DNA of 13,866 nucleotides, from positions 1 through 13,866 of IMG/VR virus record IMGVR_UViG_2690316086_000003; one strand, written 5' to 3'. This DNA comes from a virus. Lineage: Duplodnaviria > Heunggongvirae > Uroviricota > Caudoviricetes. Position 1 is the first letter of the stretch. Each line of letters begins with the position of its first letter. The translations under genes were made by a program, and so were the position numbers. The notes under the pieces were generated by a model. The model did no database searches and was not told where the DNA came from. It saw only the letters and a program-made list of their open reading frames with translations. This document shows, piece by piece, positions 2,429-12,493 of the stretch.

Positions 2429-2905
2429 TTAAGTTCCTGTCTTGGTGATGTTCTGGCTTTTCCGTTTTGATTCTTGATTTTTCAGATAGTTAGCTACCTT
2501 CATTTCCATTGCGGCAATGTAGGCGCGAACGTCATGATCAACCCAACTAGGCTCCGTAGCATTTCCAGATAAGAGGAAAGCCACAATTGCTCTTTTTTCA
2601 TCAGAGGCGGCTTGATAAAGGCTGTTTATGTCTAAAAGTTCACTTTTTGTATCTGAAGTGGATGGGGTTGGTATGGGGTATTCGTTAAGCCCCCAATGCT
2701 CTGGACCAACCACATCAGAAAAGAAACGCCATAGTTCTGGAAGTTTGTCTTTACTTATCGAACCTTTCTTAATCCAGTCATGGATTGATGGTGGTTGGAC
2801 TTTGAAATGACGTGCGATTTCCGCCTTTGATTTGACGGCTCCTGATGCAATTTTTTTGTTAATGGCCTGCTCTATCGCTCGGCCTAAGTCTTTACCACTA
2901 AGCAT
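2429..2905 (-). CDS. racR: prophage repressor, RacR-like (CI-type HTH repressor)
   Basis: 158-aa ORF MLSGKDLGRAIEQAINKKIASGAVKSKAEIARHFKVQPPSIHDWIKKG... with an HTH near residues 24-47. AGGAGA RBS upstream. Divergent from a Cro-like gene. Length and sequence match my memory of Rac prophage RacR. Confidence 0.85.
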   Translation of the reverse strand: MLSGKDLGRAIEQAINKKIASGAVKSKAEIARHFKVQPPSIHDWIKKGSISKDKLPELWRFFSDVVGPEHWGLNEYPIPTPSTSDTKSELLDINSLYQAASDEKRAIVAFLLSGNATEPSWVDHDVRAYIAAMEMKVANYLKNQESKRKSQNITKTGT

Positions 2906-2958
2906 TGCTTAATAGTCTCCTATGCGCATCGCGTTAGGCAATCCCTACTCTCGATGTG

Positions 2959-3002
2959 TTAGGCATAGCCTATTGACAATTGTATTAGGCTAAGCCTAAT
3001 AT
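2959..3002 (+). promoter_or_regulatory. pR-like rightward sigma70 promoter with repressor operator inverted repeats
   Basis: -35 TTGACA (2973-2978), 18-nt spacer, -10 TAATAT (2997-3002). Operator inverted repeats TAGGC-ata-GCCTA (2960-2972) and ATTAGGCT-a-AGCCTAAT (2984-3000). The block 2959-2979 is the exact reverse complement of 2314-2334. Confidence 0.55.
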
Positions 3003-3029
3003 TGTTGCGTGTTTTTTGGAGTTCATTCG

Positions 3030-3353
3030 ATGAAAAAAGATAACTATTCATTCAAACGAGCTTGTGCTGTTGTCGGTGGGCAATCAGCAATGGCTAGGCT
3101 TTTAGGTGTATCTCCTCCAAGCGTAAATCAATGGATCAAAGGTGTACGTCAGTTGCCTGCTGAGAGATGTCCTGCGATTGAACGAGCAACAAAAGGTGGT
3201 GTCCTGTGTGAAGAACTTCGTCCTGATGTTGATTGGACATACTTACGACGCTCGTCATGTTATTCGCAGAATATGTCGATGAAGCAACCAAATGACGAAA
3301 ACGATCATACCCGAAGCATCAAGAGGCAAATGATTCATGAAAATCAAACATGA
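3030..3353 (+). CDS. ydaS: Cro-like HTH regulator, YdaS-like
   Basis: ATG at 3030 with GGAG 8 nt upstream; the track ORF begins at an upstream GTG. HTH segment GGQSAMARLLGVSPPSVNQWIKG. Divergent from the repressor gene, in the Rac-type order racR-ydaS-ydaT. Confidence 0.7.
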   Translation: MKKDNYSFKRACAVVGGQSAMARLLGVSPPSVNQWIKGVRQLPAERCPAIERATKGGVLCEELRPDVDWTYLRRSSCYSQNMSMKQPNDENDHTRSIKRQMIHENQT

Positions 3354-3762
3354 GCACATCCGCATGGCGATGAATGCCTGGGCATACCCTGATGGTGAGA
3401 AAGTTCCTGCAGCTGAAATAGCCCGGACTTATTTCGAACTGGGGATGACGTTCCCTGAACTGTACGACGACAGCCATCCGGAAGCCCTGGCCCGTAATAC
3501 ACAGAAAATTTTCCGTTGGCTGGATAAAGACACCCCTGATGCTGTTGAAAAAATTCAGGCTCTGTTACCGGCGATCGAAAAGGCAATGCCGCCTCTGCTG
3601 GTGGCCCGTATGCGCAGTCACAGCTCTGAGTATTACCGGGAGATTGTCGAACGGCGGGATCGGCTGGTGAAGGATGTCGACGATTTTGTTGCGTCAGCGG
3701 TTGTTTTGTATGACCAGATGAATCGCGGCGGCCCGGCAGGGAATGCTGTGGTGATGCACTAA
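3337..3762 (+). CDS. ydaT: YdaT-like protein (partner of YdaS in Rac-type prophages)
   Basis: ORF of about 140 aa, MKIKHEHIRMAMNAWAYPDGEKVPAAEIARTYFELGMTF..., overlapping the 3' end of the ydaS-like gene by 17 nt. Length and position match YdaT as I recall it. Confidence 0.7.
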   Translation: MKIKHEHIRMAMNAWAYPDGEKVPAAEIARTYFELGMTFPELYDDSHPEALARNTQKIFRWLDKDTPDAVEKIQALLPAIEKAMPPLLVARMRSHSSEYYREIVERRDRLVKDVDDFVASAVVLYDQMNRGGPAGNAVVMH

Positions 3763-4787: not shown

Positions 4788-5210
4788 GTGGCAAAAGTTT
4801 TTACACAAGAAGAGCGGGAAAAAATTAAAGGGCAGGTTGTTGAACTCGTACGCCAGAGTGGGCGCGAGACGTTACGACAACTGGAAACTAAAACTGGGGC
4901 AACAAGATATCTGATGAGCGTTCTGGCCAGAGAGCTGGTTGCCAGTGGCGATGTATACAATTCTGGCTACGGGTTATTCCCGTCTGAACAGGCTCGTAAA
5001 GACTGGCAAAATGCCCGCAAAAAACTCTCAAGGGCAAAGCTGAAGAAACCATCTGCGGTTGATCCGGACCTTATCTGGTCATTACCAGATGGCGAAATAC
5101 GCCGCTACGACAGGCGTCTGAACATAATCTGTCTCGAGTGCCGGAAGAGCGAAGTTATGCAGCGCGTACTGGCGTTTTATCAGGGGAATTTTGAGGAGGT
5201 GGTGCGGTGA
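4788..5210 (+). CDS. hypothetical protein (140 aa), replication-module position
   Basis: GTG start with AGGAGG 5 nt upstream. Product MAKVFTQEEREKIKGQVVELVRQSGRETLRQLETKTGATRYL.... Stop overlaps the next start (GTGA). Confidence 0.6.
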   Translation: MAKVFTQEEREKIKGQVVELVRQSGRETLRQLETKTGATRYLMSVLARELVASGDVYNSGYGLFPSEQARKDWQNARKKLSRAKLKKPSAVDPDLIWSLPDGEIRRYDRRLNIICLECRKSEVMQRVLAFYQGNFEEVVR

Positions 5211-5461
5211 GTGAATCAAAATGCCAGGTTAATGGCAACAAGATAGAACCATGTGCAGCACTGGCAAAGTCCCTTGAGCATGATGCTGAATACACGATGC
5301 GAAAAGGTCTGCTGATATACAAAATCTGGAATGAGAGTTTAACTCGCGGTCCTGATTTTGTGATGTTGCGTTCCGGTGAATTTTCTAAATTACCAGTTCG
5401 GGTTTCATTTTGTCCGTTCTGTGGTGAAAGTCTGAAAACGTGGGAGAACAGAAATGAATGA
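5207..5461 (+). CDS. hypothetical small protein (84 aa) with Cys pairs C6/C16 and C69-P-F-C72 (possible zinc ribbon)
   Basis: GTG start overlaps the upstream stop, with GAGGAGG 7 nt upstream. The four Cys are arranged C-x9-C ... C-x2-C. Its 3' end overlaps the next start (ATGAATGA). Confidence 0.55.
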   Translation: MSESKCQVNGNKIEPCAALAKSLEHDAEYTMRKGLLIYKIWNESLTRGPDFVMLRSGEFSKLPVRVSFCPFCGESLKTWENRNE

Positions 5462-5765
5462 AATTAAAGAAATACCAGTAGTACGTGATGAATATGGCTG
5501 CTGGACGCATCCTGAATATGAAAAATTCTGTGACGGTCGGGAATATATTTCAACGGAAGAGTTTAACGCCTGGATGGAGGAAAATAATCTTCAATACGTC
5601 CTCTGCTTCAGAGATGAAGGATGTGCTGACCTTGATGCGTGTGATGCTGATATTTCTGCATGGGAACCGGAACGACCAGAGGGCAATGGATGGTTTATTG
5701 GTTCAATACATGACACCGAAGATGGCCCGGTTTGTGTATGGCTGAGAAATAAGGCCGAAGCATAA
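5454..5765 (+). CDS. hypothetical Cys-rich acidic protein (103 aa)
   Basis: ATG overlaps the preceding stop. Product MNEIKEIPVVRDEYGCWTHPEYEKFCDGREYISTEEF.... It is the last gene before the AT-rich island. Confidence 0.6.
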   Translation: MNEIKEIPVVRDEYGCWTHPEYEKFCDGREYISTEEFNAWMEENNLQYVLCFRDEGCADLDACDADISAWEPERPEGNGWFIGSIHDTEDGPVCVWLRNKAEA

Positions 5766-6070
5766 AGGCTATAAACCGACTAACAACTAAATACTGAAGA
5801 TTTAAATCAGAAACGATTTTTATTAAATCCTTAACCGGAGGGATTCTGCACCCTCAGAACATCAGGAGGCCGTCTGAAAGGGCGGAACAGATAATGCTTA
5901 CGTTGAAACATTTTATCGACATACCAACATGGTTAGCCGTCATTGCTTTTGTTAAAATACACATCCACTTTTCTGTGCAATGTTTAACCACTGGTCATAT
6001 CAAATGGCATTCATGCGAACCATGATATAGAATCATGGCTTGAGAGAGTCGATGAAAGCGCAACTATGGT

Positions 6071-6649
6071 ATGAGAGACATTGATGTAAGAAAGGCTGTG
6101 CATGCCAAGATTCTGAGAGATCATCATAAAGATCCTGACACCCTAATCATTGATGAGTTTACGATGAATCTAGGGGCTAGCAGAGCTGATATAGCAGTGA
6201 TCAATGGGCTTATACATGGTTATGAGTTGAAGAGCAAGAGTGATAACTTGCTCAGATTACCAGCGCAGGTGCAACATTACTCATCAGTGATGGATAAAGT
6301 AACTTTGGTTGTCTCTGATTGCCATCTTTATGATGCTTTAAGCATAGTTCCATCATGGTGGGGGATAAAGCAAGTTACGCAAGGTGCACGGCAAGGTATC
6401 CATTTAAAAACAATTCGAACTAGCAAGTTGAATCCACAAGTGGACAAACTTTCCTTAACAATGCTTCTTTGGAAAGATGAATTGCTTTCCCTATTAAGTG
6501 ATGTAGGGGAGCTACAGAATTTGAAAAATAAACCTAAACGCGTCTTATGGTCAAAACTCGCCAATAGTATGGATGTTGGCGAGCTTCGTGAAGCTGTTCG
6601 AGTTAAACTTAAAGCCCGTAAAGAGTGGCGAGTTGCTCAACAACCTTAG
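6071..6649 (+). CDS. hypothetical protein with PD-(D/E)xK-like nuclease motif; recalled as 'sce7726-family-like'
   Basis: 192-aa ORF with AT-rich codon usage. Motif arrangement E29 (IIDEF), D40 (RADIAVI), E52-L-K54 (GYELKSK), which is the classic order for the restriction-endonuclease-like fold. Family assignment is from memory only. Confidence 0.7.
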   Translation: MRDIDVRKAVHAKILRDHHKDPDTLIIDEFTMNLGASRADIAVINGLIHGYELKSKSDNLLRLPAQVQHYSSVMDKVTLVVSDCHLYDALSIVPSWWGIKQVTQGARQGIHLKTIRTSKLNPQVDKLSLTMLLWKDELLSLLSDVGELQNLKNKPKRVLWSKLANSMDVGELREAVRVKLKARKEWRVAQQP

Positions 6650-7706
6650 TTATGTGATGGTTTTGCCCAATCCTACGCCATACCTCTGGGCTACCAAATT
6701 TATAGTTACCAGAGGGATTGGCTTTGTAGGCTTGATACTCGTTTGCATAATATTCTATGTCTCTATCTCCCGCACAGAATGTAGGCCCTGAATATTCTCG
6801 ATGAGCAAGAATATCCTCACTATGTTTACCATATTGTTCATAACCAAAGCGATTAGCTACTCTTCCTCGAAATACCCAAAAGTCATTATCTCCAGAGTAT
6901 CTGACGCTGGCAGATACGCTAGGGAATCGCGTCGAAAGCCTATTAAAGTCGGGGTGCTGTACTCCATAATCACTATAAATCACATTTCTGGCAAGTTCTT
7001 TTCTATTCATTAAACTCTGCCATAAAATCCACTCGATTCGAGGTTGAGAATATAGACCAACAGAAATATCACTGAGATCTGTAGGAAATGAACCCCCAGA
7101 AAGAATCACTTTTCTGTATTCATTGAGGTGCGCCAGATTGTTTATCAATCCCATTGCCAAAGTATATAGTTCGCCGGAATTAATTTTATCCTCGGTTAAC
7201 TCATCTCTTAAGTCAATAATTATATCAATATTTGATAAAGGAATTCCCAGATGATTAATGTAATGCGTTATTAATTGTGGGTTAACCAGATCTAACGTGG
7301 TTAATCTCAAGCATATTTCATTCTGCATTAATTCATCAATCGCTCTTTTATAGTTAGATGGGCGAGTTGGTGAACTGACAGGAATAACTCTTATCCCCAT
7401 ATCTCTAACTTGATTAACCGCATTTATTATAGGGTAATGATCTTCAGGAGAAATAAAATGCTCTTCAATTAATAATCCATCAATATAAACACCTTGCATA
7501 TCTGAGCAAGATTTTGAGACTTTCTTTCCGAACTCTATAAGAGTCTCGTTATAACTCTTTAAGGCAATACCTGAATCAGGGTCAATTGGCACTGGTTCAA
7601 TTTCGAGTAATGGCAAAATTTTTGATTTCTTTTCAATGGATAGCTGCGATAAAGCTGATAACTCAGAACGTTTCGCTTTCAGAATAGGAATATATGAAAT
7701 TGTCAT
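6609..7706 (-). CDS. hypothetical protein, recalled as 'beta protein / sce7725-family-like' (function unknown)
   Basis: 365-aa ORF, MTISYIPILKAKRSELSALSQLS..., AT-rich, with AAGG about 8 nt upstream of the ATG. Convergent with the 192-aa gene and overlapping its 3' end by 41 bp. The N-terminal Y-x-P-I-L-K-x-K motif matches my recollection of this family. Confidence 0.8.
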   Translation of the reverse strand: MTISYIPILKAKRSELSALSQLSIEKKSKILPLLEIEPVPIDPDSGIALKSYNETLIEFGKKVSKSCSDMQGVYIDGLLIEEHFISPEDHYPIINAVNQVRDMGIRVIPVSSPTRPSNYKRAIDELMQNEICLRLTTLDLVNPQLITHYINHLGIPLSNIDIIIDLRDELTEDKINSGELYTLAMGLINNLAHLNEYRKVILSGGSFPTDLSDISVGLYSQPRIEWILWQSLMNRKELARNVIYSDYGVQHPDFNRLSTRFPSVSASVRYSGDNDFWVFRGRVANRFGYEQYGKHSEDILAHREYSGPTFCAGDRDIEYYANEYQAYKANPSGNYKFGSPEVWRRIGQNHHITKVVEQLATLYGL

Positions 7707-8263
7707 GTTAATACCTTATACAGAATCAATTAACAATTAATGGTTCTTCGGACATTGAAATTTATATCGCAAAAATTGGCAAACTCTCCTCGACTACTCA
7801 CTTGTGGGTATCCTGGCGTAAAAGGAATGACTTGGCAATACCCGGTGTGATCATAAGTCATTGAAAATGATCATTTTTATCAGTCTTTCTTCCATGATGA
7901 ATGCTAATGCCATTTGATTTGTTGAGGTGAAAACTGTTAAAAATCAAAACGATGTAATTGAAATGAACGTTCGGTAGCATTCACGCTTTAAATGTTTCTT
8001 TTGTGCTGATTGGATGAATTTGGGTCACTTATGATGAGAGATGTTGCAGGAAAAGAAGTTGGCATTGATCTATTGGATAGTTAGAATTGCTGCGGGTGCT
8101 TGAGGCTATCTGCCTCAGGTATGAACACCAAAAGGCAGATAGAGAAAAGCCCCAGTTAACATTACGCGTCCGGCAAGACGCTTAACATTAATCTGAGGCC
8201 AATTTCATGCTTTGCACATGTAGGTTAGCCTCTTACGTGCCGAAAGGCAAGGAGAAGCAGGCT

Positions 8264-8419
8264 ATGAAGCAGCAAAAGGCGATGTTAATCGCCCTGATCG
8301 TCATCTGTTTAACCGTCATAGTGACGGCACTGGTAACGAGGAAAGACCTCTGCGAGGTACGAATCCGAACCGGCCAGACGGAGGTCGCTGTCTTCACAGC
8401 TTACGAACCTGAGGAGTAA
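8264..8419 (+). CDS. hokD: Hok/Gef-family small membrane toxin (51 aa)
   Basis: Product MKQQKAMLIALIVICLTVIVTALVTRKDLCEVRIRTGQTEVAVFTAYEPEE, with one transmembrane helix and the LCEVR signature. GGAG lies 9 nt upstream. The track ORF at 8207 is an in-frame upstream extension. The sequence matches HokD/RelF as I recall it. Confidence 0.8.
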   Translation: MKQQKAMLIALIVICLTVIVTALVTRKDLCEVRIRTGQTEVAVFTAYEPEE

Positions 8420-8487
8420 GAGACCAGGCGAGGGAGAAATCCCTCGCCACCTCTGATGAGTCAGGCATCCTCAACGCACCCGCACTT

Positions 8488-8515
8488 AACCCGCTTCGGC
8501 GGGTTTTGTTTTTTC
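8488..8515 (+). terminator. rho-independent terminator downstream of hok
   Basis: Stem AACCCGC (8488-8494), loop TTCG, stem GCGGGTT (8499-8505), then a T-rich run TTTTGTTTTTT. The hairpin GGCGAGGGA-gaaa-TCCCTCGCC at 8427-8448 lies just upstream. Confidence 0.7.
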
Positions 8516-8586
8516 CTGGCATTCTGGTTTACAATTCGCACGTCAGCCTGAACACCTGACACCTGCTGCGCCAGCAGAGAAAACAG

Positions 8587-8859
8587 ATGGTGCACAAAAC
8601 CAAATTTCACAATTCTGATACCGACCTTGCCATCCGGCATGGGCGGCGTTCACACGCATTTAAAACCGACTGGTACCAACACCCATCATGTACTGAAGAA
8701 CAGGCCGAATGGCTAATTCATAACTACCGCAGACGCGGATACGAGATTAAGAAAGCCCTCAGCCTCGATTATCGTCACTGGATAATCTATGTCAGGCTCC
8801 CTTATTCCGAACGCTCACCGCGCCCATCCCGCACATACCAGCAACGGATCTGGAGGTAA
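8587..8859 (+). CDS. hypothetical protein (90 aa), Qin-type Rem-like position
   Basis: ATG at 8587. Its stop TAA (8857-8859) lies inside the RBS-to-start region of the DUF968 gene. It sits between hok and the DUF968 gene, like rem in the Qin prophage as I recall it. No confident homology. Confidence 0.5.
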   Translation: MVHKTKFHNSDTDLAIRHGRRSHAFKTDWYQHPSCTEEQAEWLIHNYRRRGYEIKKALSLDYRHWIIYVRLPYSERSPRPSRTYQQRIWR

Positions 8860-11416: not shown

Positions 11417-12493
11417 ATGCTTAATACTGTAAAAATATCCAGTTGTGAGTTAATCAACGCTGATTGCCTGGAATTTATCCAGACCTTACCGGAAAACTCT
11501 GTCGATCTGATAGTCACAGACCCGCCATACTTTAAAGTGAAGCCCGAGGGCTGGGATAACCAGTGGAAGGGCGACGATGATTACCTGAAGTGGCTGGACC
11601 AGTGTCTGGCGCAGTTCTGGCGGGTGCTGAAACCTGCCGGAAGTCTTTACCTGTTCTGTGGCCATCGCCTGGCATCTGACATTGAAATCATGATGCGTGA
11701 ACGCTTCAATGTGCTGAACCATATTATCTGGGCGAAGCCGTCCGGACGCTGGAACGGGTGCAACAAGGAAAGCCTGCGGGCGTATTTTCCGGCCACAGAA
11801 CGCATTCTGTTCGCGGAACATTATCAGGGGCCGTATCGTCCGAAAGATGATGGCGATGAGGCGAAGGGCAGGGCACTGAAACAGCATGTGATGGCCCCGC
11901 TGATTTCTTACTTTCGTGATGCGCGTGCTGCTCTTGGGATAACGGCAAAACAGATTGCAGATGCCACAGGAAAGAAAAACATGGTGTCGCACTGGTTCAG
12001 TGCCAGTCAGTGGCAGCTACCGAACGAAAGCGATTATCTGAAATTACAGTCGCTGTTTGCCCGGGTGGCAGAAGAGAAACATCAGCGGGGAGAACTGGAA
12101 AAGTCCCATTACCAACTGGTCAGCACATACAGTGAGCTGAACCGGCAGTACATGGAACTGCTGAGTGAATATAAAAATTTGCGGCGGTATTTCGGTGTGA
12201 CGGTGCAGGTGCCGTACACCGATGTGTGGACGCATAAACCGGTGCAGTACTATCCAGGGAAACATCCGTGCGAAAAACCGGCAGAAATGCTGCGGCAGAT
12301 AATCTGCGCGAGCAGTCGTCCGGGTGACCTGGTGGCGGATTTTTTCATGGGTTCTGGCTCAACCATAAAAGCAGCTATGGCGCTCGGGCGTCGTGCAACT
12401 GGTGTTGAACTGGAGGCAGAACGTTTTGCGCAGACCGTTAAGGAGATTAGTCACATCCTTACATGCTCAATTGATGACGGGAAGGATGGATAA
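11417..12493 (+). CDS. orphan DNA N6-adenine methyltransferase (beta-class, DPPY motif) with a central inserted domain
   Basis: 358-aa ORF. N-terminal motif IV ...VDLIVTDPPYF..., C-terminal motif I ...DLVADFFMGSGSTIKAAMALGRRATGVELE.... An insert of about 150 aa lies between them. No adjacent restriction endonuclease gene is recognisable. Confidence 0.85.
   Translation: MLNTVKISSCELINADCLEFIQTLPENSVDLIVTDPPYFKVKPEGWDNQWKGDDDYLKWLDQCLAQFWRVLKPAGSLYLFCGHRLASDIEIMMRERFNVLNHIIWAKPSGRWNGCNKESLRAYFPATERILFAEHYQGPYRPKDDGDEAKGRALKQHVMAPLISYFRDARAALGITAKQIADATGKKNMVSHWFSASQWQLPNESDYLKLQSLFARVAEEKHQRGELEKSHYQLVSTYSELNRQYMELLSEYKNLRRYFGVTVQVPYTDVWTHKPVQYYPGKHPCEKPAEMLRQIICASSRPGDLVADFFMGSGSTIKAAMALGRRATGVELEAERFAQTVKEISHILTCSIDDGKDG

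Follow-up and report, generated by a model that had tools for sequence, protein, structure and literature searches.

A two-gene cassette of a cII/sce7726-family protein with a nuclease fold and a convergent Beta partner, the common core of gop-beta-cII and PD-lambda-2 type loci, in a Rac-type prophage

The satellite phage P4 carries a three-gene system, gop-beta-cII, that protects against phages lambda and P1 and in which gop and beta are regarded as a probable toxin-antitoxin pair (Rousset et al. 2022, PMC9122126). Gop is toxic and Beta neutralises this toxicity; the protection has been demonstrated for the three-gene P4 system only (PMC9122126). A second system, PD-lambda-2, is composed of a HigB-like protein (A), an Xre-peptidase (B) and a Beta-family protein (C) (Vassallo et al. 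2022, PMC9519451). Protein B is toxic and is neutralised by A, while C is dispensable for neutralisation and required for defence (PMC9519451). The toxic components demonstrated in these systems are Gop and the Xre-peptidase, not cII (PMC9122126, PMC9519451).

The stretch of DNA analysed here (the window, 13,866 nt) represents the early part of a Rac-type prophage found in Shiga-toxigenic E. coli; E. coli O103 ML775 and phage Rac-SA53 match it with 100% identity. Annotated genes of the window include racR, ydaS/ydaT-like genes, replication genes, hokD, DUF968, RusA, DUF1133 (Q-like), a DNA methyltransferase and iraM. The cassette under study and its immediate surroundings consist of the following features.

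5886..8081: low-GC variable cargo slot between replication-module genes and hokD/sok, with only the two-gene cassette inside
6004..6033, + strand: sigma-70-like promoter candidate ATGGCA-18-TAGAAT, about 38 nt before the ATG of the next gene, matching the consensus at 9 of 12 positions
6071..6649, + strand: gene of the sce7726 / Phage_P4_cII-family protein, ATG to TAG, 192 aa
residues ~1-125 of the 192-aa protein: predicted PD-(D/E)xK nuclease core with E29, D40, E52-x-K54 and Q66-x3-Y70
residues ~126-182 of the 192-aa protein: C-terminal helical domain
6609..7706, - strand: Beta-family gene, 365 aa, predicted TIM barrel, the sole other gene of the island
6609..6649, both strands: antiparallel overlap of the two 3' coding ends, 41 nt, coding for L180-P192 of the 192-aa protein and T353-L365 of Beta
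8059-8087: good sigma-70-like site TTGGCA-17-TAGAAT
8094-8269: sok, Rfam match of 119 bits, directly right of the cassette
8264-8419: hokD type I toxin gene as annotated, contained in a longer ORF at 8207-8419

The start of the 6071..6649 ORF is the same in RefSeq, in the E. coli O103 chromosome identical to the window. The number of promoter-like sites in the cassette region is not above that found in shuffled sequence, which makes the promoter evidence weak.

Sequence comparison places the 192-aa protein in an already named family, phage P4 cII / sce7726. It scores 191.1 bits against NCBIfam NF033832 (sce7726_fam; cutoff 70) over residues 1-184 of 192, matches the PADLOC model 'cll', which stands for the cII part of gop-beta-cII, at 2.4e-28, and is also matched by PHROG 984. 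Pfam PF26915 (Phage_P4_cII) is assigned in precomputed tables to 120 of 120 listed homologues. Phage P4 cII itself (264 aa) reaches 151 bits on NF033832, so it belongs to the sce7726 family, and in a tblastn comparison it is 28% identical to query residues 22-127. A word-indexed search returned 302 homologues, all of them called 'sce7726 family protein' where they are named, and an exhaustive profile search among 1.84 billion representatives brought up 5,443 clusters at E<=1e-3, of which 1,283 also pass E<=1e-30. Our literature search on the nuclease and Beta families found annotation mentions and no mechanism, nor did it find an enzymatic or phenotypic result for a nuclease function of any sce7726 member.

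The partner, the 365-aa protein, matches Pfam Beta_protein (PF14350) at 3.8e-52. The window thus shares with P4 gop-beta-cII both protein families and the convergent arrangement of the cII-like and beta genes. The differences are several. The window protein has 192 aa compared with 264 aa in P4 cII; the window genes overlap by 41 nt, whereas those of P4 are separated by a 27-nt gap that holds an annotated terminator; the host element is a lambdoid Rac-type prophage instead of a satellite; and the window Beta is nearer to PD-lambda-2 than to P4 in PADLOC models (PD-Lambda-2_C 1.8e-41, P4 'beta' 2e-4). The window has no gop, and the ORFs in the space upstream of beta (7707-8206) do not exceed 43 aa. 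Of the PD-lambda-2 genes only C, the Beta gene common to both, is present: neither HigB/DUF6932 nor an Xre-HTH/M78 peptidase is found upstream of beta.

Genome loci were collected through the nuclease (450 matches), and the 80 that were kept come from Proteobacteria, Acidobacteriota, Myxococcota, Firmicutes, Actinobacteria, Chloroflexota, CPR and Gastranaerophilales. In 77 of the 80, a convergent Beta-family ORF lies directly downstream, and two of the three exceptions are contig ends. Viral contigs found the other way round, through Beta, carry the convergent nuclease gene in 53 of 58 cases; the five exceptions have truncated Beta genes, contig ends or an insertion. Many of the viral loci are near-identical copies of the window cassette, so they are not all independent. 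The pair is also present on plasmids of Agrobacterium, Rhizobium, Rhodococcus, Bacillus and Acinetobacter, and in Gordonia phage Powerball, where gp32/gp33 overlap by 89 nt.

An overlap of the two genes is present in 77 of 80 pairs, with lengths of 11-158 nt that are all 2 mod 3, and the same holds for the 53 of 53 pairs on viral contigs. The two C-termini, encoded on opposite strands of one piece of DNA, have thus retained their frames relative to each other in many phyla. Separated genes occur only in P4, L013 and L014. A scan for intrinsic terminators found no such site in or beside the 6609-6649 overlap. Being convergent, the two genes are not co-transcribed, unlike genes in the type II toxin-antitoxin layout. 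Obligate pairing and frame-locked overlap are properties of the cassette across phyla.

Some loci deviate from this layout. L012 (6001-7810, Xenorhabdus koppenhoeferi) is the sole locus with room downstream and no Beta gene; after its sce7726 gene, the same strand carries one ORF with a Ser/Thr protein-kinase domain (165 aa) and one for a PP2C phosphatase (241 aa). In several copies (L117, 4001-6530; L119; L149; L150) the nuclease gene is intact beside a truncated or interrupted Beta gene. L117 contains an insert of ~1.2 kb, with the nuclease gene then on the same strand, and the Beta genes of L149 and L150 code for 234 and 299 aa, respectively.

No universal third gene was found among the loci. 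Gop is absent from all 80 of them, and a phmmer search with P4 Gop found P4 alone. An Xre-HTH/M78-peptidase gene abuts or slightly overlaps the beta start in about 12-15 of the 80 loci, according to naive ORF calls, and nine of these Xre-peptidase loci also have a HigB_toxin gene. Twelve of the nearest neighbours match PADLOC PD-Lambda-2_B (down to 6e-159). A PD-lambda-2 type operon followed by a convergent Phage_P4_cII gene was identified in 12 of 70 distinct loci (L021, L038, L042, L044, L048, L058, L059, L074, L076, L077, L080 and L083). Three further loci were picked through the Xre-peptidase (L151-L153, from Pseudomonas, Chromobacterium and Halomonas), and in each of them the Xre-peptidase is accompanied by Beta and a convergent Phage_P4_cII gene. 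HigB is replaced by DUF6932 in two of these loci, and the remaining one has no called gene ahead of the Xre-peptidase; the first gene of PD-lambda-2 type operons thus alternates between HigB and DUF6932.

Because P4 has the Beta and cII pair and PD-lambda-2 type loci end in a convergent Phage_P4_cII gene, this pair is the common core of gop-beta-cII and PD-lambda-2 type loci. As a rule, loci of the PD-lambda-2 type thus have four genes, the fourth being the convergent nuclease gene, whereas the published definition consists of three genes and has no cII-like nuclease. Most enterobacterial relatives of the window cassette are bare two-gene modules with neither gop nor the Xre-peptidase.

The original prediction derived a PD-(D/E)xK nuclease from the residues of the 192-aa protein, namely E29 in IIDEF, D40 in RADIAVI and E52-L-K54 in GYELKSK. 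These placements are correct, as is the spacing of 11 residues between D40 and E52. The motif itself turned out to be poor evidence. In 20,000 shuffles of the 192-aa protein, the loose form D-x8-20-[DE]-x-K arose in 74%, and in 44% together with an upstream E; the exact spacing was seen in 0.15% and the extended E..D..ExK..QxxxY pattern in 0.65%. The motif was dropped as evidence standing by itself, and since it is weak in this respect, the case for a nuclease must rest on conservation and fold. On these two grounds the assignment stands.

In an alignment of 41 homologues (down to 46% identity), E29, D40, E52 and K54 are invariant. A wider alignment was made of the query and its best 150 representatives (n=151), which are 32-49% identical to the query. 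Here E29, E52 and K54 are each conserved in 151 of 151 sequences and D40 in 150 of 151, so the possibility that the motif residues vary among homologues, under which the original prediction would have fallen, was not borne out. D58, R62, Q66, E137 and R183 are likewise found in 151 of 151 sequences and Y70 in 145 of 151. Q66 and Y70 form a QxxxY element (Q66-x3-Y70), missed earlier, that extends the motif set. The order E, D, ExK, QxxxY is the motif set of RecB-like nucleases, of the RecB, Cas4 and lambda exonuclease type. The active site is the most strictly conserved part of the whole protein. The conservation of E29, D40, E52, K54, Q66 and Y70 in distant representatives places the nuclease motif above chance, and the predicted fold adds to this.

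An AlphaFold2 model of the 192-aa protein, built on the 41-sequence alignment, has a pLDDT of 94.3 and a pTM of 0.89. Its elements are helices in 3-20, strands 25-32, 37-44 and 48-54, helix 63-73 and strand 76-82, followed by two further strands and the helical domain 126-182. The alpha-beta-beta-beta-alpha-beta core, whose lack would have counted against a PD-(D/E)xK enzyme, is thus present in the model, and the beta-strand-like flanks proposed for the motif residues are confirmed, with E29, D40 and E52/K54 on the three consecutive strands. The closest structural match of the model is the MmcB-like protein SPO1766 (3dnx), with YaeQ, SfsA, Bax1, FAN1, Vsr and many type II restriction enzymes at lower rank; Foldseek was far less sensitive, with SfsA as its top match (E 0.011). 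Sequence and profile searches of the PDB with the nuclease gave chance matches only (TAF1 bromodomains), and no solved structure of a family member is present there. A Pfam scan, with a set that did not contain the PF26915 model, returned nothing at E<=1. Neither RecB-like profiles (PDDEXK_1, Cas4, YqaJ) nor the MmcB-like one (DUF1052) were matched in sequence-profile comparisons (Pfam at E<=1, PDB). The likeness to RecB-like nuclease domains is therefore confined to fold and motif order, and from MmcB-like / DUF1052 proteins (3dnx, SPO1766) the 192-aa protein is further set apart by its extra C-terminal helical domain (~126-182). We regard the fold and family assignment as nearly certain, and consider real nuclease activity of the protein quite probable.

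The historical name 'cII', along with some annotations as 'regulatory protein', implies a regulator. Some PD-(D/E)xK proteins that keep their catalytic residues do act as DNA-binding regulators, and the 192-aa protein might be a non-catalytic regulator of lysogeny or of Beta expression, in which the nuclease-like fold only binds DNA. Yet inactivated nuclease folds normally lose their catalytic residues, while E29, D40, E52, K54 and Q66 are kept here in 150-151 of 151 sequences despite 32-49% identity to the query. The family is, moreover, not confined to temperate phages: it is widespread on the chromosomes and plasmids of bacteria from many phyla, and occurs there with Beta. The 'cII' phenotype of P4 speaks against a regulator as well: Ghisotti and co-workers in 1990 reportedly found that a mutation in the P4 cII terminator had a temperature-sensitive phenotype, which is said to have been attributed to reduced beta expression and not to loss of a regulator. 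We consider a regulator of this kind improbable and continue with the 192-aa protein as a putative nuclease.

The model of Beta is a TIM barrel (pLDDT 92.3). Residues Y5, K12, E15, D76, R115, R134, D165, R223, R240, D246, R269, Y270, R344 and H351 are invariant, and with Asp, Arg, Lys, Tyr and His fixed in the modelled barrel, Beta looks enzyme-like and could therefore itself be the effector. A reading built on this would have Beta, or Gop or HigB/Xre-peptidase in the larger versions, as the effector, and the cII-like nuclease in an auxiliary role, as a regulator of Beta expression via convergent transcription, a processing enzyme or an antitoxin-like protein. It agrees with the proteins demonstrated to be toxic, Gop and PD-lambda-2 B, and with the requirement of Beta for PD-lambda-2 defence (PMC9122126, PMC9519451). 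It also agrees with the extent of the PD-lambda-2 clone: by the coordinates in the paper's supplement, the clone stops 396 nt past the Beta stop codon, and a whole cII-like gene needs 529-544 nt past this codon in related loci. Because the clone is too short for it, an intact nuclease gene was probably absent and probably not needed for PD-lambda-2 defence, if the layout in ECOR42 (QOYB01000002) is that of the related loci. Against this reading, the bare two-gene form, which makes up the majority of enterobacterial loci, has no other toxin, and the strictest conservation in the nuclease protein falls on its active site. The nuclease is also much better conserved than Beta (40-55% compared with 25-29% identity to the window proteins across the loci). 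We rate an auxiliary nuclease as unlikely, though well worth considering, and keep the nuclease as the candidate effector.

The same difference in conservation bears on a restriction-modification-like scheme, in which Beta, remotely similar to DNA/tRNA transglycosylases, would mark self DNA and the nuclease would cleave unmarked DNA. Restriction-modification systems combine a fast-evolving nuclease with a slowly evolving modification enzyme, and here the slowly evolving partner is the nuclease. In the fold comparison of Beta, the top matches were Obc1, MTHFR and Kce, and DpdA/TGT scored no better than dozens of unrelated TIM barrels, so that the transglycosylase likeness is generic. Neutralisation of Gop toxicity by Beta in P4 also fits poorly with a DNA-modifying role (PMC9122126). 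Such a scheme appears decidedly improbable to us, and the marking of self DNA is not part of the explanation that we favour.

The genomic setting of the cassette is that of replaceable cargo. Its GC content is 0.34-0.42 and that of the flanks about 0.5. The match of other E. coli prophages to the window stops at ~5885 and resumes at ~8082, and in other E. coli the slot holds DUF551, DUF4014, DUF7167 or a SAM-dependent methyltransferase instead. Among 5426 complete E. coli genomes, window positions 5207-8640 are covered to at least 80% in 77 and positions 5766-8206 in 93. Lambdoid prophages carry other E. coli pairs, whose nucleases are 52-54% identical to that of the window, at a second classical site for cargo, between lysis and terminase genes, and a chromosomal copy adjoins McrBC and Mrr, or a type I restriction-modification system. 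The 128 nearest large neighbours (70 distinct loci) include matches to MzaA, KwaB, dCTPase, dGTPase, type III methyltransferase, DitA, BrxH, PbeA, DrmD and HmaA, as well as integrases and P4-type primase domains. This defence-gene neighbourhood was counted without a matched background, so it is suggestive and not a measure of enrichment.

The setting weighs on yet another reading, in which the protein is an MmcB-like recombination or repair nuclease that serves the prophage's own DNA metabolism and not defence. The closest structural match is MmcB-like, one homologue bears the database name 'DNA repair protein MmcB-like', the Gordonia phage copy is annotated 'exonuclease', and in the window the cassette lies between replication genes and RusA. 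This reading accords badly with a low-GC slot of exchangeable content, with the transcription of Beta against the flanking prophage genes, which are annotated on the + strand, and with the occurrence of the cassette at lysis/terminase moron sites, in chromosomal defence islands and on plasmids. The related systems, furthermore, were experimentally selected for phage defence (PMC9519451, PMC9122126). A role in the DNA metabolism of the prophage seems very improbable in view of these points. We know of no MmcB-like protein paired with a Beta-family gene.

We propose that the two-gene cassette is a stand-alone anti-phage module with the nuclease as its probable effector, an overall explanation that we find moderately probable on the present comparisons. 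A defence function of the bare Beta and nuclease pair, taken for itself, is at least as likely, whereas for the effector role of the nuclease, which the original prediction had called likely, we see roughly even chances. In this proposal, licensing would allow the nuclease to cut nucleic acid (most likely DNA), and Beta, which evolves faster, would be the controlling or sensing partner. Convergent, overlapping transcription would couple expression of the two genes, each depending on the other, for which the terminator mutation in P4 cII would be a precedent.

A more far-reaching version of the proposal sees Beta and the cII-like nuclease as an ancient, self-sufficient two-gene core, to which Gop and HigB-or-DUF6932/Xre-peptidase would be interchangeable front-end add-ons; the PD-lambda-2 definition would then miss a fourth, nuclease gene, and the antisense coupling would be part of the trigger. 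The core would comprise ~5,400 clusters (50% identity) in many phyla, phages and plasmids, with an overlap locked before the phyla diverged. Taken as a whole, this version is tentative, and we would put it somewhat short of even.

The protein family, the partner family and the defence phenotype of the three-gene relative are already known, so the cassette is not a new kind of system. Our literature search did not find the family explicitly assigned as PD-(D/E)xK/RecB-like on the strength of an invariant active site, the two-gene form without gop described as the common state, the antiparallel overlap with its locked frame, or a link of gop-beta-cII and PD-lambda-2 through a shared Beta and cII core and not through gop or HigB. 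For mechanistic work on both of these experimental anti-phage systems, the shared core offers a catalytic handle (D40A, K54A). Prophages of Shiga-toxigenic E. coli have the core by itself, as do many other bacteria, and defence-finder rules that require gop or HigB/Xre-peptidase, as the published three-gene definitions suggest, probably miss the bare pair. For a defence system, the conserved tail-to-tail overlap is an unusual arrangement; it points to antisense control. Should the two-gene form not be a defence system, a clean annotation would still be gained for a 'hypothetical' family of several thousand clusters.

Several other features were observed in the window and in related prophages. 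In the dicB/ydfC region, a DicF antisense RNA (Rfam RF00039, 75 bits) is located at 1183-1234 on the - strand. In the immunity region (2429-3762), racR (2429-2905, - strand) faces genes for a YdaS-like HTH protein (3009-3353) and a YdaT-family 'toxin' (3337-3762), according to the RefSeq annotation. The late region contains a stand-alone DNA methyltransferase gene (11417-12493, + strand, 358 aa) with no adjoining nuclease gene annotated. In L145 (1332-3146), a lambdoid prophage with the cassette at the lysis/terminase junction, the Q antiterminator gene is followed by a gene for a 604-aa DUF7380 + EMARD_N protein, which may be another cargo or defence gene.
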